Source: Promethearchaeota archaeon
GTDB taxonomy: Archaea > Asgardarchaeota > Lokiarchaeia > Sigyniarchaeales > SOKP01
DNA length: 28,082 nt
Direction: 5' to 3'
Assembly: GCA_048940925.1 (NCBI GenBank)
Contig: JBHLOC010000034.1
Coordinates: forward strand, 23,069-51,150
Below, piece after piece: positions 8,772 to 25,922 of the stretch. The first letter of the stretch is position 1. Each line of letters starts with the position of its first letter. A model generated the notes under the pieces. It worked only from the letters and a program-made list of their open reading frames with translations, was not told where the DNA came from and did no database searches. Both the position numbers and the translations under genes were made by a program.

Positions 8772-9710
8772 ATGGCTCTCCACAAGGTATCTTTCTGTGG
8801 GTTAGATAATGCAGGTAAAACCAGTATAATCACAGCAATCACAAGACGCTTCGGTTTTGAGGAGGAAGTTGCAAGATTATCTCCAACAAGAAGAATTGCG
8901 AGAGATACATTCAGATTTCTAGGAATTGAGTTTACAAGAATGGACTTCGGGGGACAAAAGCAATATAGGGAAGAGTATTTAAAACGCCCAGAAAAATATC
9001 TTGGGGGAACAGATTTAATGTATTATGTAATAGATGCTCAAGATTTTAATAGATATATTGAATCTATAGACTATTTAGAGCAGATTTTGCTCTTCTTTAA
9101 GGAAGAACAGGAATATATTCCGATCTGTATTCTTTTTCATAAGTTTGACCCTCAACTTGTGGATGATGTGCAAATTAATAAGAGAATCCTCACTCTAAAA
9201 CAAGCATTAACTAGATATTCAATTGATTTCGATATATTTTTCTTTGAAACGACGATATTTGATATAAAATCTGTTATGGATGCTTTTTCAAATGGCTTAT
9301 CAATGCTATTTGAGAAAATGGAAATGGTTTCTAATTTATTTTCAGAAATAAGTGAAAACTACAATGCTATTTTAATAGCTTTATTTGATGCTAAAGGGAT
9401 CACCCTTGGAGAATTTTATCGCCCTCATCTTCAATTACAAGAGAAAATAAAGATTTATGAAATATATTTAGAACTTCAAAAACGGGTTGTTGCTGAAAAT
9501 CGCGTTTTATATGAATTTTCTGATACATTTGAAAGTGGAGAAAGGTTTTCAGGAGTTATAGAAGTATTAAAATTTGGAAAACTTGATTTCTATTTATTAT
9601 TTATTGTAGAAGAAGATGAAAAAAACTTAGAACAAACAATTGTTCTTTTAGATAAAATCGAGTCAGCTAAACCTCAAATGGAAAATCTTATTCTTCAGAT
9701 TATCCAATAA
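8772..9710 (+). CDS. Rag/Arf-like small GTPase with C-terminal roadblock/longin-like domain
   Basis: G1 GLDNAGKTS, G2 SPT, G3 DFGGQ, G4 HKFD and G5 ETTIFD (Rag-type HKxD and TSI[WY]D pattern). The ~130-aa C-terminal alpha/beta domain includes ILIALFDAKGITLGEF and FYLLFIVE. GGTGAT lies upstream. Confidence 0.88.
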   Translation: MALHKVSFCGLDNAGKTSIITAITRRFGFEEEVARLSPTRRIARDTFRFLGIEFTRMDFGGQKQYREEYLKRPEKYLGGTDLMYYVIDAQDFNRYIESIDYLEQILLFFKEEQEYIPICILFHKFDPQLVDDVQINKRILTLKQALTRYSIDFDIFFFETTIFDIKSVMDAFSNGLSMLFEKMEMVSNLFSEISENYNAILIALFDAKGITLGEFYRPHLQLQEKIKIYEIYLELQKRVVAENRVLYEFSDTFESGERFSGVIEVLKFGKLDFYLLFIVEEDEKNLEQTIVLLDKIESAKPQMENLILQIIQ

Positions 9711-9790
9711 AAAAAGGTTGATGTAAAGAGTAGTTTTATTTAAATTTATCTTATATAAATACTTAATTTTGCTAAGGAAATTTTGAAAAG

Positions 9791-9895
9791 CGCAGCTGGA
9801 GGGATTTGAACCCCCGAGCGCTTTCGCGCACCGGCTATCTCTTTTGCTAAAAGTAAAACTCGAGGCCGGCGTCTTTCCAACTAGGCTACAGCTGC
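9791..9895 (-). tRNA. tRNA-Ser(CGA) with a 22-nt intron (9837-9858) at the canonical 37/38 position
   Basis: Minus strand reads GCAGCTG TA GCCTAGTTGGAAAGAC G CCGGC CTCGAG[TTTTACTTTTAGCAAAAGAGAT]A GCCGG TGCGCGAAAGCGCTC GGGGG TTCAAAT CCCTC CAGCTGC G. It has a long variable arm and G discriminator; CCA is not encoded. Confidence 0.95.
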
Positions 9896-9924
9896 AATTT
9901 CTTATGAAACTTAAAACATAATAA

Positions 9925-9937
9925 GTATAAATTTCTT
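9925..9937 (-). promoter_or_regulatory. Putative archaeal BRE/TATA for the tRNA gene
   Basis: AAGAAA-TTTATAC on the minus strand about 30 nt upstream of the tRNA 5' end. The AT-rich background lowers certainty. Confidence 0.45.
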
Positions 9938-9997
9938 ACTCTTTCTAACAATAGAATTTAAATAATTAGCTCATTTTTGAATGAGGTTTTCAATAAA

Positions 9998-10300
9998 TTA
10001 TTGAGAAGAGGGAATATATATTTTTAATTTTAAAGAAGGATCTAAAAGCTTTATTATTCCTTCTTGTTCATATTGTTTTAAAAGCAGTTTAACTGTAGAA
10101 ACTCTTATATCATATTTTAAGGCAATTTCAGTAGCTAAGATTGTTTTTTTCTTTAAAATAGATTCTTTTATTTCTTTTTCAAGGTTTTTTGGTACATACG
10201 CATCACGTTCTACAATATTGATTTGTTTAGTTCTTCCGTACTTTCTTCTAAGATTTAAAGTAGCTTTTCTTACTAATAGCTTTTCTTCTTTTTCTGACAA
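9998..10300 (-). CDS. rps25e: Small-subunit ribosomal protein eS25
   Basis: Basic 100-aa protein with a winged-helix pattern (ILATEIALKYDIRVSTVKLLLKQYEQEGIIKLL...KIYIP) matching eS25. TTG start with GTGA 6 nt upstream. Confidence 0.8.
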   Translation of the reverse strand: MSEKEEKLLVRKATLNLRRKYGRTKQINIVERDAYVPKNLEKEIKESILKKKTILATEIALKYDIRVSTVKLLLKQYEQEGIIKLLDPSLKLKIYIPSSQ

Positions 10301-10451
10301 CGAAAATCACAAAAATTATTTTAATCGCATAAATTAAGAGAATTTGATACTATAAATAATTAAAATCTAATAAAATTTTTGATTTGATATTTATTGATAT
10401 ATCAATTAAAAAAAGAAATTAAACGATTTCATTAACACGAGCTTGTAGAAA

Positions 10452-11087
10452 GTGTCTAATAATTATTACTTCAATGTAAAAAGAAGAAGACCAGAAGAGA
10501 ATTATAAGGATGTAAGAGAATATTATAATAATGAAACTATTGTAAGATATGCTACTTCAAAAAGTATAATGAAAACTCAAGAGAAAATTACAATTAGAGC
10601 TTTAGAATTGTTAGATCTCAGAAAAAATAATGCTCTAATCTTAGATGCTGGATGTGGTCCAGGTTTTACTGCAATGTATTTAGATACAATTGGATTTAAA
10701 GTTATATCACTTGATATTATCTCAGGTTTTTTAAATTATTATAATATTAAAGATCTTAATCCAATCGCCGCTGATATGTGTTTACTCCCGTTTAAATCTG
10801 GAATCTTTGATGCCATAATATCAATTTCAGCATTACAATGGATTTATAAAGATCTACATGATAAGGTTAATCGAAAGAGGTTTATTAATTTAACAAAGTC
10901 TTTTGAAAAAATTTTAAAACCTGAATCGAAATTGATAATTCAATTTTATCCTAAGAATGAGACCATTATGAAAGAAATTGGAAGGATATTTGCGGAACAT
11001 TCCAATTTAAGAGGAACTTTTGTTATAGATAATCCGAATAATGCAAAAAAAAGAAAAATTTTTCTATGTTTAAAAAATCATAGATAA
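10452..11087 (+). CDS. Bud23/WBSCR22-like SAM-dependent SSU rRNA guanine-N7 methyltransferase
   Basis: RPEE...YYN...Y...Q.KITIRALELLDL, ILDAGCGPG, PFKSGIFDAIISISALQW, QFYPKN and VIDNPNNAKKRKIFLCL are collinear with the Bud23 motifs I recall (RPE, RALELL, FDAAISISAIQW, QFYPKN). GTG start. Confidence 0.85.
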   Translation: MSNNYYFNVKRRRPEENYKDVREYYNNETIVRYATSKSIMKTQEKITIRALELLDLRKNNALILDAGCGPGFTAMYLDTIGFKVISLDIISGFLNYYNIKDLNPIAADMCLLPFKSGIFDAIISISALQWIYKDLHDKVNRKRFINLTKSFEKILKPESKLIIQFYPKNETIMKEIGRIFAEHSNLRGTFVIDNPNNAKKRKIFLCLKNHR

Positions 11088-11255: not shown

Positions 11256-14200
11256 ATGATAAAAAAACAAAAAGTGAAATCTTTATCATTGCTTTTGATG
11301 ATTTTAATAACTAGCTTTTTTACTTTTCTCCAATTAAACTTATTTTTCATGGACACTGATAAGTTCGATAAGGACTCAGAAATAATTACTAATCCAAAAA
11401 CAAGTATAAAAGGTAATGCTTCGTGGTGGGATAAATCATATCGATCCAGACAGTTAATTAATATTACAAATCCTTATCCTGTAAACTTCGAGAATTATGG
11501 GGTGAGTATTTCTTTCAATTATACTGATCTAGTTAATCAAGGGCAAATGAATTCCAGTCTAAAAGATGTAAGAATTATTGAATATGACTCTGAGGGAATT
11601 CCTTTTATAAGAAGATATTACTTTAAGATGAATTACCCGCAACAAGATATAGCGACTGTATGGTTTGATACAAATATTTCAGCTAGTACTACTGAATATG
11701 ATACGTATTTATACTACGGGAAAGAAACTGCACAAATAGATGATGAAGGGCATTATTTTATGAACACTGCTACAAATTCCCCATCAGATAGTTTTGGTTT
11801 GATTAGAAATGGAAATTTTGAATTAGATGTCAAAACAGGCACTTTAATTGATGGTACTTTTGGTTGGAATTTTACCGATGATGTACCTGAGGATATCGGT
11901 CCAGGTTATGCACCGAATGTTCCAGGGGCAAATTATCAACATAATTTATCAAATTATGTTGGCCAACATGAAGATGTGTATGAAGGAGATTATTCATTTA
12001 AATGGGGTACCACTGATCATTATTTACCTTCAGAAGGTTCTAGCAATGAATTTATAGGTACATTATTTAGTTATCCATTTATTGTTCCTAAGATAAGCGG
12101 AGCAGGATCACCTAAACTTTATATTCAAACATGGCGAAATGTTAGATTATATGATATGAGTAATCCTAGATGGATAGAATTTTATGCACGAACTTCAAAG
12201 GATTATAGTCAAACAATGGATACTGGACATAATGGTTTACCTGATGGACTTGCAGAGGATTGGATAAGTATAGGAGACTCAAAAGGATCAGAGTATATAG
12301 CAGAAAATCAATTAGATTTATCTCAAGCTAATACATATATAGGTGAATTAATGGATGTAATTTATCTAGATGTAACTAATCATCAAGGAGAACTTATATT
12401 TCTGGAATTTGGCATGTGGGGTATAGAAGGAGATAAAGTATCTGCATTTGCACAGGTTGATGATGTGAGATTTAATTATATTTTAACTACAGTATTAAAT
12501 CCTGAAATAGAAGAACGAAGATCAGATATTACAATTATAACTAGAGACGTTGATGGAAGGCTTGTTCCTAATGCCGAAGTCTCATTAATGAATATGTCAG
12601 ATTCTATTGAGACTAAATTTACTTCTCTAGATGATGCTTCAGTTACTTTCACGGGAATTGATTTTGGCGAATATAATTTTACTGTAAATTATACATTGCC
12701 ATCTGGAAGGGAAGAAGAAATGTATAACAGTTTTGAGAACGGTGAAGGTCCTTTTTATATACAACAAGCTATAGAGAATGAAACACTTTATATTGATATG
12801 TGGACAATCGATTTTGAAATGGTTGATTTTGACAATGAACCACTAACCATGGGAAATATCACAATACGGGATGCTGATGATGAATTTTTAACTAATTTAA
12901 CTCTTAATGATGAAGGAAAAGCAACATTTCGTTGGAGAAATCAATCCAAATATTATTATAAAGTATGGTACGATAATGACGATTATAATTTAAACCCCAC
13001 TGCGTTAAATGCAAGTTATATCTTAAGAGATACTTACAATCAACTAAATAATAAGTATAGAACCGTTACGGTTGATATAAATGCAACAAATACTGCTTCA
13101 GGACCAAATTTTGCAGTTAGTGAACTTTTTTATACAGATGGCTCACGAACAGAATTAGGAAATAAAAAAATAATCAAAATTAACGTAACAATAACTGTCC
13201 CTGAACCAGCTTCAACACTTTCATCTGTTTCTATTTATTACATAGATAAAAATAATTCAACTGATGGAAATCTTATTTATTATAATGATAGTTATACTTT
13301 ATCTGATAAAATAAACTTGATCCAAATAGATATCAGAAATCCTCTTATTATGTCTGGTAATCTAAAGAGCGATAAATTTGAAGTGTATGGCTTGAAAATA
13401 GAAGTAATTGGTGAAAATTCGTCTCGATGTGATGGTATAATTAAATTGGATTCAATTGAGACATGTAATATTTATAATGTTACAGATTTATGTAAAGTGG
13501 ATATCAAAATTATAGGTACGGATTATGCTGGTGTTGCTGGATGTTATGTAATAGTAAACAGTTCAAATAGAGATGGTCTTTTTAATGTTTCTTTATTAAC
13601 AAAGGATCTCACGGGATACGCTTACGGACAAATTAATACTAATATCCCACTCTGGTATTTAAGAGGATATAATTATACTTTTTCATTAGAGTTTTTTGGA
13701 GAACATCAAGATTTAAATGTAACCGAATCAGATAAATGGAAACCATCTGGTCCTAGATATTCTTATAATTATCGATTAAATCAATCCGCAGATCTTATCT
13801 TTCAACTTTACCTAAGTGGTGGCATTAATACAAGTTGGTACCTAACTAGATTTGAAAACTTAATGATGGTAGAACAGGTAATGTGGAGTGAAGATATTAC
13901 AGTCTCAGTGAATTTCACCTTAACTACTGATGAATGGCAAACATCTAGAGCCGTTGATCCTCCTGCTACAGTGACTTGCACGATTAAAAGTACAGGAATT
14001 AGTGCTAAAGTTTGGTTAACATTAGATATGGACCCCGGAGTTGGTCCAGGTATTTATACAATAACATTTGATTCAAGTGTTTTATCAGCAGGTAATACGG
14101 GTAAGATTTATTCTATTATTGTATCTGGAAATAAGGCAGGATATAGTCTCCCAGCTAATGTGAGTACCACAATACTCATTAGTACAGTCCCCACTGTGTT

Positions 14201-15509
14201 GTCAATGCACGATTATTACAATTCCTTAAATGTTATATCAGAATTTTCTCAAACATTTGGGGAATTTGTAAATTTAACAGTAAAATATTATAATGATACA
14301 AATTCACCGTTAGAGAATGCTATATTGACTTATGAGTGGCTTAATCTTGATCCTATTCTGTTTTATGAAGATCCCATTAATGATGGATATTATACTGCAA
14401 CAATTGATACATCAATAGCAGAATCGTGGGGTTTAAAATCAATCAAGATTATTGCCAAATTAGAAAACTTTACCACACAGACTCTTATAACTTCTCTCAG
14501 CATTACACAAAGACCCACAACTCTTAATGGAGAAACAGACTTAGTTTACATTAACTCGAGAGTATGGGTAGAGGATTCTCATCTATTCGAATTTCAATAT
14601 GCCGATGTAATTGAAAATGAGATTATAGGGAATTTAACTACTGCTACTTTCATCTGGGAAAAGTTATATCCAAACGGAACTAGAGTTCCCGGAATACATG
14701 GTACTGGAACATTGATTCAAAATGCGAATAAAACCTATATACTAGATTTTAATACAGAATTAAGACCCGTTGGTTATTATTATTTGTATCTTACATTACA
14801 AAAACAAAACTATGAAGTAAAAGCTGCACTCATTAATTTAGAAATTATGTTACGAAACTTTACAGCCACTTTAGACGCAACAGGATTGAGAGACAACAAT
14901 CAAATCAGGGTAGTTCAAGGTGATGATATTAATTTTGAAATCACTCTATGGGATGAAACACGAAATATAGAACTTGAAAACGCAACAATTACACTCACTA
15001 TTGGAGGTAATGATTACATTGTTGATATGACGGCTTCGGGCGTATACGAATTAACATTTAAAACGAATGATATTAGTGCGTTTATTACTTCTAGAACATT
15101 CTCAGGTAGGATTACAATTCAAGCATCCAATTTCACAACCAAAGAAATTATTATTACTGTAATAGTTCAAATGGAGGAAATATTTCCAGGAATGCCTACA
15201 TTTTATTTTATCTTGATAACTGTATCAATTATAGGCGTTGTGGGGAGTTTGGTAGCCTATAGAGTTATTCAACAAGCAAGAATACCTAAACATGTTAAGA
15301 AGATCAGAAAAGTTAAAGGATATATCAAATCAAAAAAGAAAATCACTGAAACAGTTGCAGTTCCAACAAAAGAAGAGATGATAGTTAAATTATTTGGAAA
15401 TGAATGGAAAGAAATTGGTCTTTCAATTGAAAAAGTGTTAGGCATAGAAGAATTAAAACCTGAAAAACAACCATTAAAAGAATTTAAAAAGGGAGGTGAA
15501 AGCGAGTAA
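11256..15509 (+). CDS. Large cell-surface glycoprotein A: DUF2341-like domain, CBM-like beta-sandwich, Ig/CnaB-like stalk, C-terminal TM and cytoplasmic tail
   Basis: N-terminal signal/anchor, then WWDKSYRSRQLINITN...LKDVRI...VWF...YLYYG (DUF2341-like) and a LIRNGNFE...VDDVRF domain. More than 30 N-x-S/T sequons. TM FPGMPTFYFILITVSIIGVVGSLVAY is followed by a basic tail. Confidence 0.85.
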   Translation: MIKKQKVKSLSLLLMILITSFFTFLQLNLFFMDTDKFDKDSEIITNPKTSIKGNASWWDKSYRSRQLINITNPYPVNFENYGVSISFNYTDLVNQGQMNSSLKDVRIIEYDSEGIPFIRRYYFKMNYPQQDIATVWFDTNISASTTEYDTYLYYGKETAQIDDEGHYFMNTATNSPSDSFGLIRNGNFELDVKTGTLIDGTFGWNFTDDVPEDIGPGYAPNVPGANYQHNLSNYVGQHEDVYEGDYSFKWGTTDHYLPSEGSSNEFIGTLFSYPFIVPKISGAGSPKLYIQTWRNVRLYDMSNPRWIEFYARTSKDYSQTMDTGHNGLPDGLAEDWISIGDSKGSEYIAENQLDLSQANTYIGELMDVIYLDVTNHQGELIFLEFGMWGIEGDKVSAFAQVDDVRFNYILTTVLNPEIEERRSDITIITRDVDGRLVPNAEVSLMNMSDSIETKFTSLDDASVTFTGIDFGEYNFTVNYTLPSGREEEMYNSFENGEGPFYIQQAIENETLYIDMWTIDFEMVDFDNEPLTMGNITIRDADDEFLTNLTLNDEGKATFRWRNQSKYYYKVWYDNDDYNLNPTALNASYILRDTYNQLNNKYRTVTVDINATNTASGPNFAVSELFYTDGSRTELGNKKIIKINVTITVPEPASTLSSVSIYYIDKNNSTDGNLIYYNDSYTLSDKINLIQIDIRNPLIMSGNLKSDKFEVYGLKIEVIGENSSRCDGIIKLDSIETCNIYNVTDLCKVDIKIIGTDYAGVAGCYVIVNSSNRDGLFNVSLLTKDLTGYAYGQINTNIPLWYLRGYNYTFSLEFFGEHQDLNVTESDKWKPSGPRYSYNYRLNQSADLIFQLYLSGGINTSWYLTRFENLMMVEQVMWSEDITVSVNFTLTTDEWQTSRAVDPPATVTCTIKSTGISAKVWLTLDMDPGVGPGIYTITFDSSVLSAGNTGKIYSIIVSGNKAGYSLPANVSTTILISTVPTVLSMHDYYNSLNVISEFSQTFGEFVNLTVKYYNDTNSPLENAILTYEWLNLDPILFYEDPINDGYYTATIDTSIAESWGLKSIKIIAKLENFTTQTLITSLSITQRPTTLNGETDLVYINSRVWVEDSHLFEFQYADVIENEIIGNLTTATFIWEKLYPNGTRVPGIHGTGTLIQNANKTYILDFNTELRPVGYYYLYLTLQKQNYEVKAALINLEIMLRNFTATLDATGLRDNNQIRVVQGDDINFEITLWDETRNIELENATITLTIGGNDYIVDMTASGVYELTFKTNDISAFITSRTFSGRITIQASNFTTKEIIITVIVQMEEIFPGMPTFYFILITVSIIGVVGSLVAYRVIQQARIPKHVKKIRKVKGYIKSKKKITETVAVPTKEEMIVKLFGNEWKEIGLSIEKVLGIEELKPEKQPLKEFKKGGESE
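15492..15499 (+). promoter_or_regulatory. Shine-Dalgarno GGAGGTGA embedded in the 3' end of the surface protein A gene
   Basis: Perfect GGAGGTGA 9 nt before the ATG at 15509. Stop and start overlap as TAATG. Confidence 0.8.
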
Positions 15510-16621
15510 TGCCAATAGGTTTAGTATTAATGAGATGGGATATTAAAGTAAGTACTGAAATTCTTGCTAAATATCCTGAAGAACTAGTTATAAGTGAAGA
15601 GACATTAATGCAAATATATGCAGCACATGAATATACAGGTGAACCAGGAATGATTAGCTTATTAGTTGGTCCATTAAATATTGCTTCATACTACACTGGT
15701 CGAGAAAAACCACTTTATATTATTCTTATTTTAAACTTGGATGAAGATCCAGATACTTTTGAAGGAGGTTTAGCTGATATTTCACGAGTGATATTTCAAA
15801 ATTATGAAGACAATGCATATCTTGAAATGATTCCGTTCCTTTTCCAACGTTTATCAACTTATCCTTATTTAAATGAGGAACAAAGTTTAGCTATTACTTA
15901 TATTGATGGTGTAAATAGATTGATAATAAATAGGTTAAGAGATGAGGGCGTAATTTCTAAATCAGAGTTGAAAATTTGGTTAAAAGATAAGTATAGAGAA
16001 GGATTCTTTGATGTAGATGCGATACTTATGGAATTAATCAAAAGGGAAATAATAAAAGAAGCTTCTGTGAAAGGAATGCCTTCAGAACTAATATTTCTCA
16101 TAAATGATCTGTTTATGATTAGAAGACCTCCAATTAAACTTTTAGAAAATCCAATAGAACGAGGACTCCCTGATAAATTCGTTGAAGAGTATAATACAGC
16201 TGTAAAAAATTATTTTCAGAAATATAGTCCATCGGACGAGGACAATCTTAAAATTCTTGATAATGTTATAGCTGATCCTCAAGTCTATGAAATCCTGAAA
16301 TTATTAAGAATTTCAATCGTAACTAAGAATGTCTTAGAAAAACTTAGAAAAAAGGGAGTAGAAGACATAGATGGAGGATTGAAAAAGTTATGGGATTGTC
16401 AGATGATTCATGTATTCCAAGATACTAAAGGCAATGAGTATTATGCATTGCTTACTGACTTCTATAATTCATTGGTTTACCCAAAGTATATGTTAAAGAC
16501 AATAATTTATCAATATAGTGTAAAATCTAAGTCAGAAGGAGTATTAGTAGAATATCTAAACGTTCTTGAAGATACTTATCGACCAACTAAATTTTTAATA
16601 GAAGAAAAGAGTGAAGATTGA
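15509..16621 (+). CDS. Cytoplasmic protein with predicted N-terminal longin/uDENN-like domain and two winged-helix repeats (copy 1)
   Basis: The N-terminus has a beta-beta-alpha-beta-beta-beta-alpha pattern (GLVLMRWD...ILAKYP...LMQIY...ISLLV..NIASYY...IILILN...LADISR). Two repeats follow: RLIINRLRDEGVISKSEL...LMELIKREII and YEILKLLRISIVTKNVL...LKKLWDCQMI. The fold is inferred. Confidence 0.65.
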   Translation: MPIGLVLMRWDIKVSTEILAKYPEELVISEETLMQIYAAHEYTGEPGMISLLVGPLNIASYYTGREKPLYIILILNLDEDPDTFEGGLADISRVIFQNYEDNAYLEMIPFLFQRLSTYPYLNEEQSLAITYIDGVNRLIINRLRDEGVISKSELKIWLKDKYREGFFDVDAILMELIKREIIKEASVKGMPSELIFLINDLFMIRRPPIKLLENPIERGLPDKFVEEYNTAVKNYFQKYSPSDEDNLKILDNVIADPQVYEILKLLRISIVTKNVLEKLRKKGVEDIDGGLKKLWDCQMIHVFQDTKGNEYYALLTDFYNSLVYPKYMLKTIIYQYSVKSKSEGVLVEYLNVLEDTYRPTKFLIEEKSED

Positions 16622-16698
16622 TTATCTTAATTTTTCTTCTCTAATTTTATTTATATTTTTTTTCTTTGAAAAGTAGAAATATGAAATATCCAATTTTA

Positions 16699-17733
16699 TT
16701 ATTTTTCAGGTAAATAAGCCTTTAATTTTTGAGCCTTTTCAGAGAATTCTTTATAAAGAGAATCATCTCCTAATTCTAAACATAAATTCGAGATTTTCTC
16801 GAAATAGTTAGCAGTTTGAGCAATATCACCGTTTTCTAAACAAATTCTAGCTTTATTAATTAATTGTTCTCTTTCAAACAATGGTTGTAATAAAGGAGAT
16901 GCATCTGTGTTTATTTCTAAGATATCTGCGATTATTTGAATCATTTTATCACGATTTTCTGGATCGATTGCAACCATAGAATAAGTCTTCAAACCAAGAA
17001 TCTCTTGTATTTTATCGATTTTTAAAGCTTCAGGTAAATCTTGTTTATTCCCAATCACAGCAGTATGGGCATAAGGCGCATGTTCTCTGACTAATTCAAT
17101 GAAAAATCTACTTTTTTCTACATTTTCTAAAGTAGAATCCGTAATTATAAGAACCGCATCACTACCGAGAATAAAATCATTCCATAAATAACTAAATTGC
17201 TCTTGTCCTGCGAAATCCCATAAATGAAAATATAATTTTCCTATTTTAATTGTCGATATCTTTCCTGTAATTGTAGGTACATGAACAGAAGGGATCTCAT
17301 CCAAGCATATTAACTTTGTGGTTGTAGTTTTTCCTACTCCAGAAAAACCAACCAACGAAATTTTAGTTTTAAGATTTCTATGAGTTGTATCAATTATGGG
17401 GTCCAAAATCTCCATGAGAGCTGGATCTAAGTTTTCTATATCATTTCCGAATGTTTCTAAAAATTCTCCCTTTAAATTATCCAATCCTCTTTTTGTGCGA
17501 TCAATATCATCATTAATGTCTGTTATAAATAAAAAAGTTAATCCTATATCCTTTAATTGGGTATAAACAATTTTGAATTTAAAAAAATCATAACTATCAA
17601 GGCTAGTTCCTTTATCAGCGTCTTCTAATATCTCTTGATAGAATTTTTGAAAATCTTCAATAGAAAGTGCTCTTCCAAAATTTTTATTATACAACACTTT
17701 CTCATCTTTTAGGATGTAAACTTGTCTCAACAT
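16699..17733 (-). CDS. Longin-like domain + Ras/Arf-superfamily small GTPase + C-terminal helical (MIT/TPR-like) domain
   Basis: G1 GFSGVGKTT, G2 VPTI, G3 WDFAGQ and G4 NKQD. The N-terminal ~120 aa (LRQVYILKD.KVLY...IVYTQL..GLTFLFITD...LKGEFLETF) look longin-like. The C-terminus is amphipathic helices. Confidence 0.88.
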   Translation of the reverse strand: MLRQVYILKDEKVLYNKNFGRALSIEDFQKFYQEILEDADKGTSLDSYDFFKFKIVYTQLKDIGLTFLFITDINDDIDRTKRGLDNLKGEFLETFGNDIENLDPALMEILDPIIDTTHRNLKTKISLVGFSGVGKTTTTKLICLDEIPSVHVPTITGKISTIKIGKLYFHLWDFAGQEQFSYLWNDFILGSDAVLIITDSTLENVEKSRFFIELVREHAPYAHTAVIGNKQDLPEALKIDKIQEILGLKTYSMVAIDPENRDKMIQIIADILEINTDASPLLQPLFEREQLINKARICLENGDIAQTANYFEKISNLCLELGDDSLYKEFSEKAQKLKAYLPEK

Positions 17734-18166
17734 AATTAATTTCCCTTAATGTTTTAGATGATTACTCCTAATTAGTTAACATTTCCTAATCTAATAAAAA
17801 TAATTTTTGTTTTTATACTTTGATCCTTCAATCTAAATCAATCTATTTAAATTTTTAGAAACGAAAATATTAATGATATTGAAACAAAGTTAAGATTCCT
17901 AAGTTTCAAAAAATAAGAGTTTGATAAAATTACAAAAGAAATTAAGGAAATACTCGAACAATGAAGATCTTTTTTCAAACTCATTGTTTTATATTTGCTA
18001 TCTATTAGTAAAAATTTTTATTTACACACTTTATTATTTGTACACATTTTCTAAATATTAAACGTTAAGAAAATGTTATATACCAAAAATGGTATCTATA
18101 ATGTAAAAAAAATCTAATTTTTAGTATTCAAAAAAATATAATTTTGTTATAAAAAAGGTATTAAGT

Positions 18167-21100
18167 ATGATAACTAAAATACATAATAAGAAAAAAAACC
18201 TGAAGATCGCGATACTTTCGATTATACTTACCGCAAGCTTCTTTCTTTCTGTAGTACCAATGTTTAATTCTAATTCAGAGGATCCCAGTGTAGTTGAGAA
18301 TGAGGATCTTTCAGAGAAAACGCCATTATTGAGTACAATTGGTTATGATGTTTGGTGGAATGCATCTTTTCCTTACAGAAGACTTATTAACATTACTAAT
18401 CCTTTTGGGGTCGATCTAATTAACCGCACAGTATCAGTAGAGTTCAACTATTCGACATTAGTTAATGAAGGAAAGATGAACTCAAGTTTGAAGGATATCA
18501 GAATTGTAGAAAATGGAAGATTAAGGAATTATTTCTATATGCAAGATTTCCCCCAAACTGATTTAGCAACTGTATGGTTTCAAGCAAATATCACGTATGA
18601 TGCAGTTAATCCTGACATGGATACTTATATGTATTATGGAAATAATACTGTTGGACTTGATGAAACTTATTTTATGTCGAATATAGAATCGAATGAGATT
18701 TGGTATCAATTTGAAGAGGGGCAAGGTAGTGATGTTTCTGATTCAATAGGTAATTATAATGGTTTACTTTATGGAGGAATTTGGCAGAGTGAAGGAGCGA
18801 TAGGTGGAGCTTTAGAACTCAATGGTGTGAGTGATTACATAGCTATCTATGATAAGTATTATCAAAACGCAGGTGAAATTACTGAATTAACCATTTCTTG
18901 TTGGTTTAAAACATCTTTTGGAGGTGCAGGTCAATGGGATAATTGGGCTTTTTTCGATTATGACAGATCAGAATATTTCAATTTTTATATTAGAGGTGAT
19001 AACGGACGAGTAGGATTTTCATCTACGCACGGAACTTCAATTGACGATTTCAGTTCAAATGAGCAAAATTTAAATAATGGAGAATGGCATTTTGCTTGCG
19101 CAACATATGATGGAACCAATAAAAGGATTTATATTGATGGAGGGTCTCCTACGGTAGATACCGCTAATCCGACAGATATAGGGTCTGGTAATTATGTTAG
19201 ATATGGCTTTGTTGGTGATGGTTCTGAAGCAACTAATTTTGATGGTAATAGGAATAATTTTTATTATGAAGGACTTATTGACGAAGTCAGGTTTTTCAAG
19301 AATGCACTTTCAGCCAATGAAATCGATTTTATTTATAAAAATTATAGCGCTCCTGCTTACTTAAATGAAGAGCAGATAAAAGCCGCCAAAGTTACTATTA
19401 CAACTTATGATATCGATGGTGGAATAGTGGAAAATGCTAATGTTTCTTTATATAATGCTACTGGAGGTTTTGTAGTGAATGGTTTTACATCTAGCGATGG
19501 TTCAGTAACTTTTATAGATTTAGAGCAAGGAGGATATAATATAACTGTTCAATATACAATGAATGGTAATACCACCTTGGTCTATAATAGTTCTGATACA
19601 GAACCAGATCGATTTGATTTTCAAGAACTCGTTTATGATGAAGATATTATTACAGATTTATGGACAATTGATTTTGAAATAGATGATTGGAATGGAGATC
19701 CTCTTAATTATGGATACATTAATGTTAGTATTTCTGAAGGTGGACCTGTTCTTGATACAATAAATCTTGATGCTGATGGTTTAGCCAGTTTTGTATGGGA
19801 AAATAGAGGATCTTATTACTATGAAGTGTACTATAATAATAGTGATTATACTCCCATTCAAACTCCCTTGAATGCTAGTTATATCTATAGATCAGATTAT
19901 GATATTGAAGGTCAAAAATATCATAATTACGGCCCATTAGATGCTAATACTGAAAAGGTTTCTCTGCCTGCAAATAAATATTATATAGATTTTGATCTTT
20001 ATACTGATGGAAATTCAAGTTTTAATTACAACAAATTAAACAGAATCAATGTTACGATTAAAAATATGGATGATTTTCTTGAGAAAGTTCAAATTTTCTA
20101 CATTGACAAAGATGGACAAACATCAACATTAGATCATTTACTATATGAGAATGAAACTTACGCTGGAGGAACTTATGATAATGTCGAATTTAATATAAGA
20201 AATCCACCAGAAATCCCAGTTAAGTTACGAAATGATAATTTTGAAGTATATGGTATACATCTATATGTCGAATTTTACGATTCAGATGGGAGCACCAATG
20301 GCGTAATAGAAATTAATACCACTGAAGCATGTCATATTTTTAATAAAACTGACCTCACTAAAATAAAAATTAAAGTTCTTGATAATACACTTAATGCGCC
20401 AGTATCTGGCGTTATTGTTCATGTGACAAATCAAACAAATTCAATTGTAAATTTAACTACCAAAGCTGATGGATTTGCTTATGGTATTATAAATAGCGAT
20501 GTCGAATTTTGGTATACAAGAGGATATAATTATACTTTTAGTTTAGAGTATTTCGGACAATTAAAACCATTTTACATTAATAAAACAGACCCCCCTCAAT
20601 GGAAACCATCATCCCAAGTATCAAGTTATAATTACACTCCCCTTGGTAATTCATCCTTAATTTTTAAAATGGTGATTGATCCTTCCCAGTATAGCACGAA
20701 TTTTACATCTGTTTCAGGCTCTTCTTCTGCTACGTGGGGACAAAACCTTAATTTTCAAGTTACATTTGAATATACTGACCCTGTTGGAAGTGGACCTATT
20801 GACAATCCAGATACATTGACAGCGGTAGTTAAAAGTCAAGATACTTATGAAACAATGTTAACCAGAGAGCTAGGTGATTTCAGCCCCTTAGGAAGTGGTC
20901 AATTCTTATTGAGTATTAATTCCAGCCTGTTCTCCGCTGGAAATTCAAGTAAGAACTATTTTATCACGATTACAGGGTCAAAATCAGGTTATTCGAATCC
21001 ATCTCCAGTCTATCTTGGATTTACAGTCAACGCTGTTCCAACTTCAATTAGCATTCATGATTATGATAATAGAAACCTGGTCTTAACTGAGGTGTCGCAG

Positions 21101-22387
21101 TATTATGAAGAATCTATAAAAATTCCAGTTAAGTATTACATTACTAGTTCAGGTTCTGCGATAGCTGGTGCCACTTTAAGTTATGAATGGCAATTCGGTT
21201 CGGGACCTATTCCTACAGATCCGTCTGATTCTGATTATTATATTTTCGAAATTGATACATCAGTAGCAACTAATATCGGAAAATATAGAATTGATATTAC
21301 CGCGTACTATGAAAATTATAGCATGCAGGTAGATTATCCAGTTGATATTAATATCATAGCGCGACCAACTTTGATTAATGGGATAAGTGAATTATTGCAA
21401 CTCTCACCAAAATTATGGGTGAATGAATCAGCTAACTATACATTTGAATATAGAGATGTCTTAAGAGATGAAAGAGTTAGTGGATTAGAAACAGCATCAT
21501 ATACTTGGTTCAGATTAGATGAGAATGGTAATCCTCTTACTGGTGAAGGTAATGAGGGATTTGGTGATTTGATAGAGACTAATGACAGTTTGTATACCTT
21601 AGATTTTGATACTGAGACAAGAGAGGTTGGTGAATATAGTATTTTTGTATCTTTACAGAAAAACAGCTATGAAATTAGACATTCTTATTTAACTTTAACT
21701 ATTCAAAAACGATTGATAAACGCATCATTAGATATAACTGGTTTGACTGAAAACCGTATAGACATTGTGCAAGGAGATACTATCAAATTTAGAATAACTT
21801 TGACCGATCCCACCAATCAAGATCAATTATTAACAAGAGCAACAGTGACATTTACATTTCAAGGTAAAAATTATACGTTAACTCCAGATGAAAATGATCC
21901 TGGAGTATATATATTATCATTACCAACAAGTAATATAGATGCGTTTATACTACCAAATACACTACGAGGAATACTTACTTTTGAGAAGGAGAACTATGAA
22001 ACAAAAACTGTTGAATTGATTATTGTAGTAGGATTAACTGAGATTTTCCCAGGTATGCCTATGTTCTATTTTATATTGATTGTAGGCGGCATTGTAGCAG
22101 TAGTAGGCAGTTTAGCTACTTATCGATTTGTTCAACAAGCAAGGATACCTACTTTCGTCAAAAAAGCAAGAAAGATGAAAAAAGAAATCAAAGGTAAAAA
22201 AACAATATCGGAATCATTATTGTATCCTTCAAAAGAAGAATATCTTGTCAAAAAGTTAGGGGATAAATGGGATACACTTGGACTTTCGTTAAGAGATGTT
22301 TTAGGTGTCGAAGTCGAGAAAAAGAAAACAATACCTGAAATAAAAGAAGAAATAAAATTTAAAGAACCTATGGGAGGTGAAGATTAA
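18167..22387 (+). CDS. Large cell-surface glycoprotein B: DUF2341-like domain, LamG/pentraxin-like domain, Ig/CnaB-like stalk, C-terminal TM and cytoplasmic tail
   Basis: Paralogue of 11256..15509. LamG-like motifs WYQFEEGQG..VSDS, GALELNGVSDYI, TISCWFK, NNGEWHFACATYDG..KRIYIDG and GLIDEVRFF..ALS..EI. TM FPGMPMFYFILIVGGIVAVVGSLATY. Confidence 0.88.
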   Translation: MITKIHNKKKNLKIAILSIILTASFFLSVVPMFNSNSEDPSVVENEDLSEKTPLLSTIGYDVWWNASFPYRRLINITNPFGVDLINRTVSVEFNYSTLVNEGKMNSSLKDIRIVENGRLRNYFYMQDFPQTDLATVWFQANITYDAVNPDMDTYMYYGNNTVGLDETYFMSNIESNEIWYQFEEGQGSDVSDSIGNYNGLLYGGIWQSEGAIGGALELNGVSDYIAIYDKYYQNAGEITELTISCWFKTSFGGAGQWDNWAFFDYDRSEYFNFYIRGDNGRVGFSSTHGTSIDDFSSNEQNLNNGEWHFACATYDGTNKRIYIDGGSPTVDTANPTDIGSGNYVRYGFVGDGSEATNFDGNRNNFYYEGLIDEVRFFKNALSANEIDFIYKNYSAPAYLNEEQIKAAKVTITTYDIDGGIVENANVSLYNATGGFVVNGFTSSDGSVTFIDLEQGGYNITVQYTMNGNTTLVYNSSDTEPDRFDFQELVYDEDIITDLWTIDFEIDDWNGDPLNYGYINVSISEGGPVLDTINLDADGLASFVWENRGSYYYEVYYNNSDYTPIQTPLNASYIYRSDYDIEGQKYHNYGPLDANTEKVSLPANKYYIDFDLYTDGNSSFNYNKLNRINVTIKNMDDFLEKVQIFYIDKDGQTSTLDHLLYENETYAGGTYDNVEFNIRNPPEIPVKLRNDNFEVYGIHLYVEFYDSDGSTNGVIEINTTEACHIFNKTDLTKIKIKVLDNTLNAPVSGVIVHVTNQTNSIVNLTTKADGFAYGIINSDVEFWYTRGYNYTFSLEYFGQLKPFYINKTDPPQWKPSSQVSSYNYTPLGNSSLIFKMVIDPSQYSTNFTSVSGSSSATWGQNLNFQVTFEYTDPVGSGPIDNPDTLTAVVKSQDTYETMLTRELGDFSPLGSGQFLLSINSSLFSAGNSSKNYFITITGSKSGYSNPSPVYLGFTVNAVPTSISIHDYDNRNLVLTEVSQYYEESIKIPVKYYITSSGSAIAGATLSYEWQFGSGPIPTDPSDSDYYIFEIDTSVATNIGKYRIDITAYYENYSMQVDYPVDINIIARPTLINGISELLQLSPKLWVNESANYTFEYRDVLRDERVSGLETASYTWFRLDENGNPLTGEGNEGFGDLIETNDSLYTLDFDTETREVGEYSIFVSLQKNSYEIRHSYLTLTIQKRLINASLDITGLTENRIDIVQGDTIKFRITLTDPTNQDQLLTRATVTFTFQGKNYTLTPDENDPGVYILSLPTSNIDAFILPNTLRGILTFEKENYETKTVELIIVVGLTEIFPGMPMFYFILIVGGIVAVVGSLATYRFVQQARIPTFVKKARKMKKEIKGKKTISESLLYPSKEEYLVKKLGDKWDTLGLSLRDVLGVEVEKKKTIPEIKEEIKFKEPMGGED
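22373..22380 (+). promoter_or_regulatory. Shine-Dalgarno GGAGGTGA embedded in the 3' end of the surface protein B gene
   Basis: Perfect GGAGGTGA 6 nt before the ATG at 22387, with TAATG overlap. Confidence 0.8.
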
Positions 22388-23502
22388 TGCCTATTGGGTT
22401 AGTTTTAATGAAATGGGATGACAGAGCAGGAACAGAGGTTTTATCTAAGTATCCAGAAGAAATTGTTCTAACTGAAAAAACACTCATGCAGGTATATAGC
22501 ACTCATGAATATAGTGGAGAATCAGGAATGATAAGCCTAATGATTGGTTCCCTTAACATTGCTTCCTACTATACTGGTCCGGAGCAAAGCTTTTACATTC
22601 TTCTACTTTTAAATCTAGATGATGACCCAGATGCATATGAAGAGGGATTAATTGATATTTCTAGAATTCTCTTGCAGAATTTGGAGGATGATGCATATTT
22701 AAAGATGATTCCTTCATTATTTCGACGATTAGCGGTATATCCTACCCTCAATACTGAACAACGACTTGCGATTACATACCAAGATGAAATAAAACGGATG
22801 ATAATTAACCGTTTAAGAGATGAAGGTGTAGTGTCTAAGTCAGAATTGATGATTTGGCTAAAAGATAGATATAAACAAGGTTTTGTTGACATTGATGGAG
22901 TTATTATGGAACTAATTAAACGAGAGATAATTAAGGAAGCCTCAGTAAAAGGTATGCCCTCAGAATTAATATTTCTAGTAAGAGATATTTTGATTATGAG
23001 AGTTCCTCCTGTTAAAATCCTTAGTGATCCTTCTGCCCAAGGTTTACCCTCTCAATTTGTAGAGAACTATAAAACTGATGTTAAACGATATTTCCAGACT
23101 TATCGACCAACTGAGGGGGATAATTTGAGAGTGATTGATGTTCTTAGTAATCCTCAAGTTTATGAAACTATGCGTCTTCTTAGAACGGCAATTGTTACAA
23201 AGAATGAACTTGAAAAACTTAGAAAGAAAGGAGTTGAGGATCTGGATGATGTACTTAAAATGCTGTGGGATACACAATTAATTCAGGTATATAGAGATGA
23301 GCGAAATATCGAATATTATGCACTTCTTTCAGACTTTTATTTAAATATTATCTTTCCAAAATATCTATTGAACATAATAAAAACAGTATATGACCAGAAG
23401 TCTAAAGTTGATCAAGTTTTAATGGAATACCTTACTGTACTTGAAAACTCTTACCACGACATTAGAGTAGCTAAAAAAGAAGCAGCTAAAGCTGAAGACT
23501 AA
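22387..23502 (+). CDS. Longin-like + tandem winged-helix cytoplasmic protein (copy 2)
   Basis: Collinear paralogue of 15509..16621 with long identical blocks such as LNIASYYTG, IINRLRDEGV, MELIKREIIKEASVKGMPSELIFL and LEKLRKKGVED. Confidence 0.65.
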   Translation: MPIGLVLMKWDDRAGTEVLSKYPEEIVLTEKTLMQVYSTHEYSGESGMISLMIGSLNIASYYTGPEQSFYILLLLNLDDDPDAYEEGLIDISRILLQNLEDDAYLKMIPSLFRRLAVYPTLNTEQRLAITYQDEIKRMIINRLRDEGVVSKSELMIWLKDRYKQGFVDIDGVIMELIKREIIKEASVKGMPSELIFLVRDILIMRVPPVKILSDPSAQGLPSQFVENYKTDVKRYFQTYRPTEGDNLRVIDVLSNPQVYETMRLLRTAIVTKNELEKLRKKGVEDLDDVLKMLWDTQLIQVYRDERNIEYYALLSDFYLNIIFPKYLLNIIKTVYDQKSKVDQVLMEYLTVLENSYHDIRVAKKEAAKAED

Positions 23503-23610: not shown

Positions 23611-24954
23611 ATGAAAAAAATGACAGATGAAGAGATTTTTGATTCTTGTGCCCAATATTTAGATACACCTGAGGCTTTAGGATTGGATGGTATAGATTTA
23701 GAAAAATATATCATCGCAAGTTATATTATAAAACGACCAAAAGGACAAAATGTTAATTACTTATCTCGTTTTGCAGCGATAGAGCAATCAACTGGAACTT
23801 GGGTTAGAGTACCCGAAGAAACTGCTGAAGTTAGGAAATATCATGTTGCTAGAGTATTAGGTGTTTATGAGCTCCCAATGTATGAATATATTATTCCAAA
23901 AGATATAAAAGAAAGGACTTATTTCGTGCAGATTGGATTTCCTGTTGTTAATATTAAGGGAATGGGCATTCCCATGTTGTTTACCACAGTGATAGGAAAC
24001 ATTAGTATCACCCATGGGTTAAAATTGGTAGATCTTGCATTTCCAAAAGCATGGTTAGAAGATTTTAAAGGTCCAAAATTTGGAATTGATGGTATTAGAA
24101 AGCTTATGAACATTCCTAAACGTCCTTTATTGAATAATATGGTAAAACCATGTACAGGTCATACTTGTGAAGTCGCTGCGGATTTAGTTTATAAAGCGGC
24201 AGTTGGAGGTTGTGATGTTGTAAAGGATGATGAATTAATTTCTGATCCCTCCTTTAATACTCTTGAAGATAGAATCGTTAGCGTTATGGAAGCTGTAGAT
24301 CGTGCCGATTCAGAAAAAGGAGAAAAAACATTATATACGATAAATATAACTACTAAATTTCCAGAGATGTTTGAATATGCTGATAAAATGATAGAATTAG
24401 GCGCAAATGCATTAATGATAAATTATTTAACTACAGGTTATGAGGCTTTAAGGCAAATAGCTGAGGATCCTTCAATAAAAGTTCCAATTCTAGGACATAT
24501 GGACTTTGGGGGTACTTATTTCGGAGGAGAATGGACAGGAATGACAAGTATGTTGACATTTGCAAAATTACCTCGTATTTGCGGTGCAGATAGCGTTGTA
24601 ATTCCCGCACCATATGGTAAAGCAGAGATTTTAGACGAGAGATATGAACAAAATCTTAAAGCTCTAAGATATCCATTAAAACATATTAAACCTACATTAC
24701 CTATGCCCTCTGGAGGTATCACGCCAGGAATGGTTGAGAAATGTATAAAAGAAGCTGGAACAGATATCTTAATCGGAAGTGGTGGGGGAATTCATAGTCA
24801 TCCCGACGGTCCAATCGCTGGTGCTAAAGCATTTAGACAAGCAATAGATGCTGTCTTACAAGGAAAGAAAATAAAGGATGTCGCTAAGGAGAAAAAAGAG
24901 TTAGGTATAGCATTAGGAGTATGGGGTACTGGTAAAACAGCCTTAGTTGAATAA
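23611..24954 (+). CDS. RuBisCO-like protein (form IV)
   Basis: EQSTGTW, GPKFGIDG, GGCDVVKDDE, SGG and GGGIHSHPDG are present. Carboxylase residues are substituted: KPCTG for KPKLG, GHMD for HRA, and DSVVIP for DHIHAG. Confidence 0.92.
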   Translation: MKKMTDEEIFDSCAQYLDTPEALGLDGIDLEKYIIASYIIKRPKGQNVNYLSRFAAIEQSTGTWVRVPEETAEVRKYHVARVLGVYELPMYEYIIPKDIKERTYFVQIGFPVVNIKGMGIPMLFTTVIGNISITHGLKLVDLAFPKAWLEDFKGPKFGIDGIRKLMNIPKRPLLNNMVKPCTGHTCEVAADLVYKAAVGGCDVVKDDELISDPSFNTLEDRIVSVMEAVDRADSEKGEKTLYTINITTKFPEMFEYADKMIELGANALMINYLTTGYEALRQIAEDPSIKVPILGHMDFGGTYFGGEWTGMTSMLTFAKLPRICGADSVVIPAPYGKAEILDERYEQNLKALRYPLKHIKPTLPMPSGGITPGMVEKCIKEAGTDILIGSGGGIHSHPDGPIAGAKAFRQAIDAVLQGKKIKDVAKEKKELGIALGVWGTGKTALVE

Positions 24955-24959
24955 TTTTT

Positions 24960-25922
24960 TTATTTTATTATTAGATAATCACTTAAAAGGACTCGTATAT
25001 TTTTATTAAAGTCATTGTGAGTTACCTTTTTAGCAATTTCATTATAGCGCAAATCTAAAAACTTAATGCTTGGCATTTTATTTATATATTCAATATTCTC
25101 TAATTCGCTAATTCTATTATTTGTTAAGATTAGATGAGTTAACTTTTTTAATCCGACTAATTCTTTTATATTTTTGATGTGATTATTTGAAAGATCAATT
25201 TTTTTTAAGTTTTTTAAGCAAGTTAGACCCATTATTTCAGAAAGCGATTTTATATCATTTTTCCACCCCCAGGGGGTTCCTTTCACTTCAAATTCGAGAA
25301 AATCTGATAAATCTAATTCCTTTACTAATCCATTTTGACAGTCAACTTCGTAAAAGGCATTAGGATAACGCTTAGTTAGTTCTTTAATGGTTAAAAAATT
25401 AATATAAATTTCAGCTAATTCTTTATTGCTAAGAAGATCAAATTTTTTGATTTTTATTAATTTCTTAATAACTCTTTTAAATCTTTTATTATCGATTTTT
25501 TTCTCTTTATTTATGTATTTAAGTTTTGTAATCCTCTTTACTTCTTTAAAAAGTATCAATTTAGATTCCTGATTATTAACTTTCTTTAAAGTTTTAATTA
25601 TGTTTATCAAACAATAATAATCAGATTCGTGTTTAATAGCCCATTCTAAAGGTCTTATTGCTTTATTTAAAAACCATATATTAAGATATTTTATTGCTAT
25701 ATTTCTAATTTGTGAATTTGAATCAGATACGATTGTTCTTTCTAAAATTATAAAGAGTTTATCATCATATAGACCAATTTTATCTAAATTCTCTAATGAG
25801 TCTATTATGATATTCTCATTTTCACTATTTTCAATGAAAGATATTAAATAATTATAAGCAGAGTATTTATCTATATCTTTTCTCTCAAAAAGCTCAAATA
25901 TCTTGTTTGGTGTTAGTTTCAT
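24960..25922 (-). CDS. HEAT-like repeat + leucine-rich repeat protein
   Basis: N-terminal helical repeats (SDSNSQIRNIAIKYL...AIRPLEWAIKHE). C-terminal LxxLxLxxNxI repeats (LKKIDLSNNHIKNI, LTHLILTNNRISEL, IKFLDLRYNEI). Confidence 0.88.
   Translation of the reverse strand: MKLTPNKIFELFERKDIDKYSAYNYLISFIENSENENIIIDSLENLDKIGLYDDKLFIILERTIVSDSNSQIRNIAIKYLNIWFLNKAIRPLEWAIKHESDYYCLINIIKTLKKVNNQESKLILFKEVKRITKLKYINKEKKIDNKRFKRVIKKLIKIKKFDLLSNKELAEIYINFLTIKELTKRYPNAFYEVDCQNGLVKELDLSDFLEFEVKGTPWGWKNDIKSLSEIMGLTCLKNLKKIDLSNNHIKNIKELVGLKKLTHLILTNNRISELENIEYINKMPSIKFLDLRYNEIAKKVTHNDFNKNIRVLLSDYLIIK

Follow-up and report, generated by a model that had tools for sequence, protein, structure and literature searches.

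This work concerns a gene cluster on a 28,082-nucleotide stretch of DNA from a Promethearchaeota archaeon of the class Lokiarchaeia (GenBank assembly GCA_048940925.1, contig JBHLOC010000034.1; G000:C19:23069-51150 in our numbering), which was analysed over its whole length and is called the window hereafter; its GC content is about 30%. Three kinds of genes make up the cluster: those of giant surface proteins, referred to as receptors, those of ~370-aa proteins, referred to as adaptors, and that of a longin-Arf-like small GTPase. In the list of open reading frames (ORFs), receptor A occupies positions 11256-15509 (forward strand, 1417 aa), adaptor A positions 15509-16621 (forward strand, 370 aa) and the GTPase positions 16699-17733 (reverse strand, 344 aa), the last gene being convergent with adaptor A across a 77-bp gap and divergent from receptor B across an intergenic region of 433 bp (17734-18166). 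Receptor B (18167-22387, forward strand, 1406 aa) and adaptor B (22387-23502, forward strand, 371 aa) are paralogues of the first pair, with 35% identity over the full length of the receptors (BLASTP, E = 0) and 62% identity between the adaptors (E 1e-167). An original prediction, made from the letters of the sequence, had described two paralogous receptor-adaptor cassettes flanking a longin GTPase, and the ORFs are found at exactly these coordinates.

The link between receptor and adaptor is strong. At both junctions, the Shine-Dalgarno sequence GGAGGTGA sits within the final receptor codons and is followed by a TAATG overlap of stop and start codons (junction A, 15492-15511, forward strand, with GGAGGTGA at 15492-15499, the stop at 15507-15509 and the start at 15509-15511; junction B, 22373-22389, forward strand, with the same element at 22373-22380, the stop at 22385-22387 and the start at 22387-22389). 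The receptor stop abuts the adaptor start in most of the loci that were fetched, and the same genome carries further cassettes as a more diverged pair at C43:21719-26590 and a divergently oriented pair on C78. At C43:82322-88924, again in this genome, a single ORF of 2200 aa runs in frame through a receptor, its transmembrane (TM) helix, its tail and an adaptor, with neither a stop nor a start codon between the two parts. An exhaustive search of representatives gave nine such fused receptor-adaptor clusters of 588-2548 aa, some of them partial, and all nine retain a PGxPTFYF motif, the TM helix, the tail, a linker and the adaptor. Right after the TM helix, the receptors display a basic motif, RIPKHVKKI in receptor A (15279-15305, forward strand, aa 1342-1350) and RIPTFVKKA in receptor B (22142-22168, forward strand, aa 1326-1334). 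Its general form, (R/K)-I-P-x-(F/I/V)-(I/V)-K-K, is common to the adaptor-linked membrane proteins of families f1, f2, f7 and f18 and so extends over more than one class; a variant, KYP...RKIR, is seen in f8 and twice more among the cassettes of the window's genome. The combination of a TM helix with the tail motif is found in 3 of the 4264 ORFs of the genome, every one of them adjoining an adaptor. Besides, the net charge of the receptor tail is +6 to +8 and that of the adaptor longin domain is -11. Translational coupling, recurrent fusions and the conserved tail motif bear out the earlier proposal that receptor tail and adaptor are functionally tied.

Each receptor begins with a hydrophobic anchor or signal at its N-terminus, continues with an ectodomain of ~1270 aa and ends with a single C-terminal TM helix followed by a ~80-aa basic tail. 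In receptor A, the anchor or signal (aa 6-32) precedes a DUF2341-like region and Ig-like/CarboxypepD_reg modules, and the TM helix (about aa 1309-1339) leads into the basic cytoplasmic tail; in receptor B, a LamG domain is found at aa 220-386 (nt 18824-19324), with the TM helix at about aa 1292-1322 followed by the basic tail. Pfam assigns CarboxypepD_reg-like Ig modules to the receptors together with a weak DUF2341 signal, and finds LamG (E 7e-16) in receptor B only. The two receptors cannot be aligned between the DUF2341-like start and the first Ig-like module (window 11790-12475 versus 18700-19400), where receptor B carries LamG and receptor A an unassigned segment, which looks like the swap of a binding domain on a common receptor scaffold. 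The ectodomains hold 39 and 36 N-x-S/T sequons as compared with 17.4 and 18.0 (standard deviation ~3.6) in shuffled sequences, and none is present in the tails, the adaptors or the GTPase. Among at least 198 receptors of 822-1913 aa, the tail is 59-83% identical and the ectodomains combine LamG, Big_1, DUF2341, SdrD_B, SpaA and invasin-type modules in various ways. In orthologues of copy A, the identity of the tail (56-80%) exceeds that of the receptor overall (37-55%).

The adaptor was modelled with AlphaFold2 from an alignment of 58 sequences (A1) with a mean confidence (pLDDT) of 95.2 and a predicted TM-score (pTM) of 0.89. Adaptor A comprises a longin domain (aa 1-120), a winged-helix-like domain (123-206), an ArsR-type winged helix (240-325) and a C-terminal helix. 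The longin domain displays the topology E4-11, E15-22, H30-43, E47-53, E56-62, E69-75, H81-97, H104-120 (DSSP) and matches solved longins: NPRL2 (Z 11.8), VAMP7 (11.1), the Lokiarchaeal longin 8yqg (10.9) and Lst4 (the four within Z 10-11.8), with DENND1A and FLCN/FNIP2 among further fold matches and a Foldseek probability of 1.0 for Sec22b, VAMP7 and Ykt6. Sigma-adaptin and zeta-COP are also among the fold matches, and whole-chain Foldseek is led by GATOR1 NPRL2/3, Fuzzy-Inturned, BLOC-3, Mon1-Ccz1 and C9orf72-SMCR8. The second winged helix is of the ArsR type by fold (Z 8.3-8.5) and by sequence, its residues 246-317 matching PH1932 (E 3.8e-4) and HlyU (0.011) in profile searches and showing ArsR/SmtB-type winged helix-turn-helix (wHTH) similarity. 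The adaptor had been predicted to be a longin and winged-helix protein, and both topology and fold place it there. No Pfam or NCBIfam family could be assigned to it beyond sub-threshold noise (SufBD_N, KaiB); the family is annotated as hypothetical throughout, and its matches in the ESM Atlas are confined to unnamed archaeal clusters. In the beta1-beta2 loop, the family displays W10-D11-x-(R/K)13-x-G15 followed by P23, which reads W10-D11-x-K13-x-S15...P23 in adaptor A and W10-D11-D-R13-A-G15 in adaptor B. Across A1, W10 is kept in 53 of 58 sequences, D11 in 47 and G15 in 53, and position 16 is T, A or V and not P. No position of aa 1-120 reaches 80% arginine plus lysine in the same alignment. 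Arg65 was considered as an NPRL2-like finger and rejected, this position being occupied by R, G or K among members of the GTPase-linked clade and by P in copy B. H40, S60, G64, R205 and R267 are among the conserved residues of the adaptor. The protein is acidic (isoelectric point (pI) ~5), and in the family as a whole its winged-helix regions range from neutral to acidic (median net charge -1 and -2.5). Some homologues are extended: P0174, P0179 and P0232, from metagenomes, are fused at their C-terminus to SIR2-like plus TPR domains or to TPR alone, and other members of the family bear long coiled-coil or low-complexity tails (forms of 574-603 aa at L043-L045).

The GTPase combines a longin domain (aa 4-119), a G domain (124-272, with GFSGVGKTT, WDFAGQ and NKQD) and a three-helix bundle (283-339), as modelled from a second alignment (A2) with a pLDDT of 82.4. 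The predicted fold of the first part (E4-9, E12-18, H25-39, E45-50, E53-60, E65-72, H77-95, H104-119) aligns with the VAMP7 longin over 111 residues (Z 13.2, root-mean-square deviation 2.6), which places it in the longin superfamily and substantiates the N-terminal longin domain that had been predicted. The G domain belongs to the Arf family: its Pfam Arf match (8.9e-19) scores 68.1 bits against a cut-off of 22.3, the G1, G3 and G4 motifs are intact, the catalytic glutamine is kept and the best folds (Foldseek ~6e-10) are Arl1/Arf1 and the Asgard ArfR1. The N-terminal amphipathic helix typical of Arf proteins is absent from the GTPase, in which the 119-aa longin domain precedes the G domain, and no TM segment was seen in it. 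Longin-GTPase fusions have already been reported in Asgard archaea and Lokiarchaeia (Liu et al., bioRxiv 10.1101/2020.10.19.343400; Tran et al. 2024, PMC10933270).

Several relatives of this GTPase depart from its plan. At C43:79975-82035 (reverse strand, L050), beside the gene of a fused receptor-adaptor, the GTPase is itself a fusion of ~686 aa with the order longin, Arf-like domain, helical region, roadblock/LC7-like domain and Rab-like GTPase; the G3 motif of its Arf-like domain is degenerate (LRDFTEQ instead of WDFAGQ), and the protein may serve as a pseudo-GTPase scaffold. Two longin-GTPase paralogues (C87:31868-31870 and C43:82033-82035, reverse strand) align from residue 1 (ILRQV...), where the first codon is ATT with GGTGG or AAGGTGA upstream at Shine-Dalgarno distance. 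Since no ATG, GTG or TTG lies upstream in frame of either codon, both genes probably use non-canonical ATT starts. In two genomes of genus g4 (L013 6612-8201 and L017 12026-13402), the orthologous GTPase carries C-terminal D/N-rich DPNDSDSDDDGLTDGQE repeats, whose units resemble thrombospondin type 3 or calcium-binding repeats.

The co-occurrence of adaptor and GTPase is widespread. Within the class, 143 of the 151 genomes sampled contain the adaptor and 141 contain the GTPase family, and across the phylum the adaptor profile finds its family in 148 of 201 genomes. Among the best 47 non-self matches of the GTPase (62-91% identity), a copy-A-type adaptor is found within ~0.8 kb in 42 cases and a copy-B adaptor at 4-5 kb in four, the remaining match being on a short contig; this orthologue occurs only in genera g1 and g4 of family f1. 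A paralogous locus on C43 shows the same arrangement of receptor, adaptor and GTPase. Adjacency in distant lineages is decisive for the adaptor-GTPase link. In one genome of family f7 (G010), each of the three best GTPases directly adjoins one of the three best adaptors despite an inverted order in which the adaptor comes before the receptor, and likewise in G002 (f5). In other classes, where 18 loci were picked by the adaptor score alone, a longin-Arf-like GTPase of 275-323 aa is found less than 400 bp away from the adaptor in 10 of them. Seven of these 10 (f13, f17, f20, f24) are same-strand pairs without a receptor, one with a 4-bp overlap, and the three from f18 have the GTPase first, then adaptor and receptor. 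Linkage among the three families had been expected across Asgard genomes, and that of the GTPase is indeed kept, also where the gene order has been rearranged. The ancient unit is the adaptor with the longin-GTPase, and the receptor is a lineage-specific attachment (Lokiarchaeia, f18, f8); it is not a founding part because the adaptor-GTPase pair is often receptor-less and many receptor-adaptor cassettes have no GTPase nearby. In f2 and f6, where the GTPase does not adjoin the full adaptor, it is found 2-5 kb from a stand-alone paralogue of the adaptor longin domain plus a coiled-coil gene. This stand-alone longin (125-131 aa, with the WD...G pattern) recurs beside a coiled-coil protein of 330-450 aa (L054 8492-13207, L055 8053-14832, L056 372-4243, and C18:14764-16236 in the window's own genome), and in f2, f6 and f7 the pair lies near the longer version of the longin-GTPase, so that it may represent another small module under conservation.

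Around the cassettes, the window contains a Gtr1/RagA-like GTPase with a C-terminal extension (8772-9710, forward strand; Gtr1_RagA, E 1.6e-23), as well as Urm1/ThiS-like, eS25, methyltransferase, RuBisCO-like and leucine-rich repeat (LRR) protein genes. Across 10-17 loci of family f1, the genes follow one another in a constant order (Urm1/ThiS-like, RagA-like GTPase, eS25, methyltransferase, cassettes, RuBisCO-like, LRR, 398-aa protein and aminotransferase), and the syntenic block on both sides of the cassettes (window 8343-11087 and 23611-28082) is long and includes housekeeping genes. Adjacency inside f1 carries little weight by itself, because the whole region is syntenic there. The RagA-like GTPase was examined as a second client of the cassettes and set aside, being syntenic in f1 with no adjacency pattern beyond this general synteny; a single case, with ~7 kb between it and a cassette, was seen in a distant genome, and a role as second client is possible. 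The 398-aa protein (26146-27342, reverse strand) has an N-terminal zinc-ribbon-like CxxC...CxxC, is kept in 10 syntenic loci and gave no Pfam match.

Several observations weigh against an adaptor-GTPase switch attached to receptors. Besides the general synteny of the entire window in f1, there are loci with copy B only and no GTPase, and most receptor-adaptor cassettes outside g1 and g4 of f1 lack such a GTPase within 10 kb, as do all four of the top-scoring f2 cassettes that were examined. The most widespread GTPase paralogue of f1 (54-61% identity) is not adaptor-linked, and no adaptor-GTPase adjacency was seen in f8, f12 and f26. At the level of the proteins, a conserved arginine at the expected finger position is absent from both longin domains, the second winged helix shares sequence similarity with the ArsR-type DNA-binding domains of prokaryotes, and eukaryotic longin regulators were not detected by sequence in Pfam or in profile searches against PDB sequences. 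Prediction of an adaptor-GTPase complex from A1 and A2, run with no control pairs, scored 0.04 against a mark of 0.32 and weighs neither way.

With these points taken into account, our preferred reading, to which we give a probability of about 0.45, is that the ~370-aa adaptor and the longin-Arf-like GTPase constitute an ancient Asgard two-gene switch to which the giant surface proteins have been attached as membrane anchors and possibly as sensors. From the folds, gene couplings, fusions, tail motif and conserved adjacency, we infer the binding steps, the activity and the direction of the following mechanism. The acidic longin/winged-helix body of the adaptor would dock on the basic RIPxFVKK-type tail of the receptor, to which the adaptor is directly fused in some paralogues. 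The adaptor longin would then pair with the N-terminal longin of the GTPase to build a heterodimeric platform with the G domain on top, resembling those of NPRL2-NPRL3, FLCN-FNIP, C9orf72-SMCR8 and Mon1-Ccz1. Such pairing would bring the GTPase to the membrane beneath the receptor, its nucleotide state being set or read in the process, membrane recruitment being proposed because a longin domain replaces the membrane-binding helix of Arf and no TM segment is seen. Since the GTPase keeps its catalytic glutamine and no arginine finger is conserved, recruitment, scaffolding or nucleotide exchange would be favoured over the arginine-finger mechanism of a GTPase-activating protein (GAP). The preferred input would be the clustering of receptors by an external ligand or a partner cell. 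The outside-in receptor-to-GTPase pathway put forward in the original prediction is supported in part: the folds, the receptor-adaptor tie and the conserved GTPase linkage stand, contact between the parts, ligand binding by the ectodomain and the outside-in direction are hypothetical, and a GAP-type activity finds no conserved arginine to support it.

Clustering from the outside and control of an adhesin from the inside fit the data equally well. In the latter case, which we consider unlikely, the adaptor-GTPase switch would govern the clustering, exposure or turnover of the surface proteins, for example at protrusions or partner contacts, and the ectodomain would be the output. A comparable logic is known in Myxococcus, where MglA/MglB directs adhesion complexes. 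That the cytoplasmic pair predates the receptor link and is often receptor-less agrees with such control, as do the adhesin-like, sequon-rich and fast-evolving ectodomains with swapped lectin-type domains. Lokiarchaeial cells are moreover devoid of a surface layer (S-layer) and display numerous complex surface proteins (PMC9834061). Nothing separates this possibility from outside-in signalling, however; the long conserved docking tail suits both directions. In a different scheme, the cassette would be a forerunner of vesicle coats: the tail motif would act as a sorting signal read by the adaptor, itself recruited by the GTP-bound Arf-like GTPase, for membrane remodelling or receptor delivery. 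The parts do mirror the association of a cargo tail, a longin-fold adaptor and an Arf-type GTPase, as when Arf1 brings in AP or COPI complexes, which contain small subunits with a longin fold; the matches to sigma-adaptin and zeta-COP go in the same direction, and the N-domain of one operonic GTPase matches the sigma-adaptin family PF01217 (22.8 bits for a cut-off of 22.5). However, genes for coat scaffolds are absent from the loci, the GTPase is devoid of the amphipathic N-terminal helix, the fused forms could not cycle on and off their cargo, and no internal membrane compartments are described for the two cultured Lokiarchaeia in the literature consulted (PMC10933270). We grant this scheme only a small probability.

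It is similarly improbable that the adaptor serves the receptor only, through chaperoning of the tail, assembly or anchoring to a cytoplasmic structure, with the GTPase adjacency reflecting shared regulation or an inherited gene order. The many cassettes without a GTPase and the general synteny in family f1 would be accounted for in this way, but not the adjacency in at least seven families outside f1 (f5, f7, f13, f17, f18, f20, f24), which comes in varied orders and orientations and often as receptor-less operons with overlapping or near-abutting genes. The least probable explanation, in our view a highly unlikely one, is a membrane-tethered transcription regulator, in which the ArsR-type winged helix would bind DNA and the receptor would hold or release the regulator upon an outside signal; fused receptor-adaptor forms would then resemble ToxR or CadC. 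The relatedness of the second winged helix to ArsR/HlyU-type proteins by sequence and fold is what speaks for it, together with CodY-like proteins combining a sensor with a wHTH among the weak Foldseek matches. Nevertheless, DNA binding by the adaptor winged helices is unlikely because of their charge: the protein is acidic, and the presumed recognition helix, mapped by eye, begins with VEDIDGG or VEDLDDV and has no conserved basic residues. Furthermore, the conserved partner of the adaptor is a GTPase.

The preferred reading of an adaptor-GTPase switch finds its closest parallels in eukaryotic longin complexes. NPRL2-NPRL3 of GATOR1/SEACIT, which acts on RagA/Gtr1, shares with the adaptor an N-terminal longin followed by C-terminal parts containing winged helices, as well as the organisation in paralogous pairs, and works as a longin-dimer platform for a small GTPase. 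NPRL2/3 gave the best whole-chain fold matches, and the likeness is one of architecture and fold only: no NPR2/NPR3 Pfam match was found at E <= 0.1, and no NPRL chain in profile searches against PDB sequences. Unlike NPRL2-type proteins, the adaptor has no conserved arginine finger in its longin domain; in contrast to GATOR1, the linked GTPase is Arf-like with a longin of its own and not a Rag, and a DEPDC5-like partner was not seen. Families of NPRL2-like longins have been reported in Asgard archaea (Liu et al., bioRxiv 10.1101/2020.10.19.343400), whereas the coupling or fusion of the adaptor to a surface receptor is undescribed there. In C9orf72, W33-D34 and G38-P39 are essential, and longins with the GP motif exist in Asgard archaea (PMC12290439). 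The W10-D11-x-x-x-G15 of the adaptor beta1-beta2 loop has the WD/GP spacing of C9orf72, and the client of C9orf72-SMCR8 (CSW), an Arf GAP complex, is an Arf-family GTPase, as is the one studied here. However, the residue after the glycine is T, A or V instead of proline, adaptor A has a serine at position 15, no DENN Pfam match is found in the adaptor, winged helices follow its longin, and no partner providing an arginine finger was identified.

The architecture of the GTPase, with a longin before an Arf/Rag-like G domain, is that of the known Lokiarchaeial longin-GTPase fusions. In strain MK-D1, operons as a rule do not combine GTPase genes with those of longin or roadblock proteins (Tran et al. 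2024, PMC10933270), whereas here one GTPase subfamily consistently adjoins a specific longin protein. Liu et al. (bioRxiv 10.1101/2020.10.19.343400) found few conserved neighbourhoods of eukaryotic signature proteins and describe a different Asgard operon, roadblock-Rab-DENN. This operon associates a Rab-like GTPase, a LAMTOR1-like roadblock protein and a DENN protein, whereas the operonic GTPases described here are Arf-type with an N-terminal longin extension and have a partner without a DENN match. In the signal recognition particle receptor (SR), the longin-like SRX domain of SR-alpha binds the Arf-related GTPase SR-beta at a membrane anchor; SRX is among the adaptor fold matches (Z 8.9-9.1) and SRPRB among the Pfam matches of related GTPases. 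In contrast to our system, the GTPase itself is the anchor in SR, no giant ectodomain is present and the function is co-translational targeting, and the resemblance detected is one of fold. Among prokaryotes, MglA-MglB of Myxococcus associates a small GTPase with a dimer of the roadblock/longin superfamily that controls surface adhesion and motility complexes (PMC10933270). It differs in that MglB adopts the roadblock rather than the longin fold, fusion to a receptor is absent and MglA lacks a longin domain of its own. Plexins, finally, are eukaryotic single-pass receptors with an intracellular GAP domain for Rap. As an analogy only, they illustrate a direct route from a surface receptor to a small GTPase without kinases, with an unrelated RasGAP-like fold and an activity within the receptor chain itself.

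NPRL2-like longins, longin-GTPase fusions and GP-motif longins are thus already known in Asgard archaea, and a search of the literature for the adaptor-GTPase operon, its coupling to receptors, the fusions or the tail motif found no description of them. A broader evolutionary proposal, about which we are tentative and rather doubtful, is that an ancient Asgard switch made of a longin platform and an Arf-like GTPase was hard-wired to giant surface proteins with lectin domains, by a tail motif or by fusion, in the Lokiarchaeia as well as in one or more further classes. This would be a prokaryotic transmembrane route from the cell surface to a GTPase, and a possible forerunner of the eukaryotic longin complexes that act as GAPs or guanine nucleotide exchange factors and of the coat logic of cargo tail, longin adaptor and Arf.

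To conclude, Asgard genomes encode dozens of small GTPases and longin/roadblock proteins, which cannot be paired from gene order (Tran et al., PMC10933270), and the module described here is an exception that brings together a specific longin protein, a specific GTPase subfamily and, in some lineages, a specific family of surface proteins. It offers defined pairs for binding, exchange and hydrolysis assays, and its short tail motif is a target for mutagenesis. If the link holds, the tie of longin platforms to membrane proteins and Arf-type GTPases is older than the eukaryotes, and the unexplained complex surface proteins of Lokiarchaeial cells would be connected to an intracellular switch, with implications for the ways in which the archaeal host may have detected or retained its partner cells.

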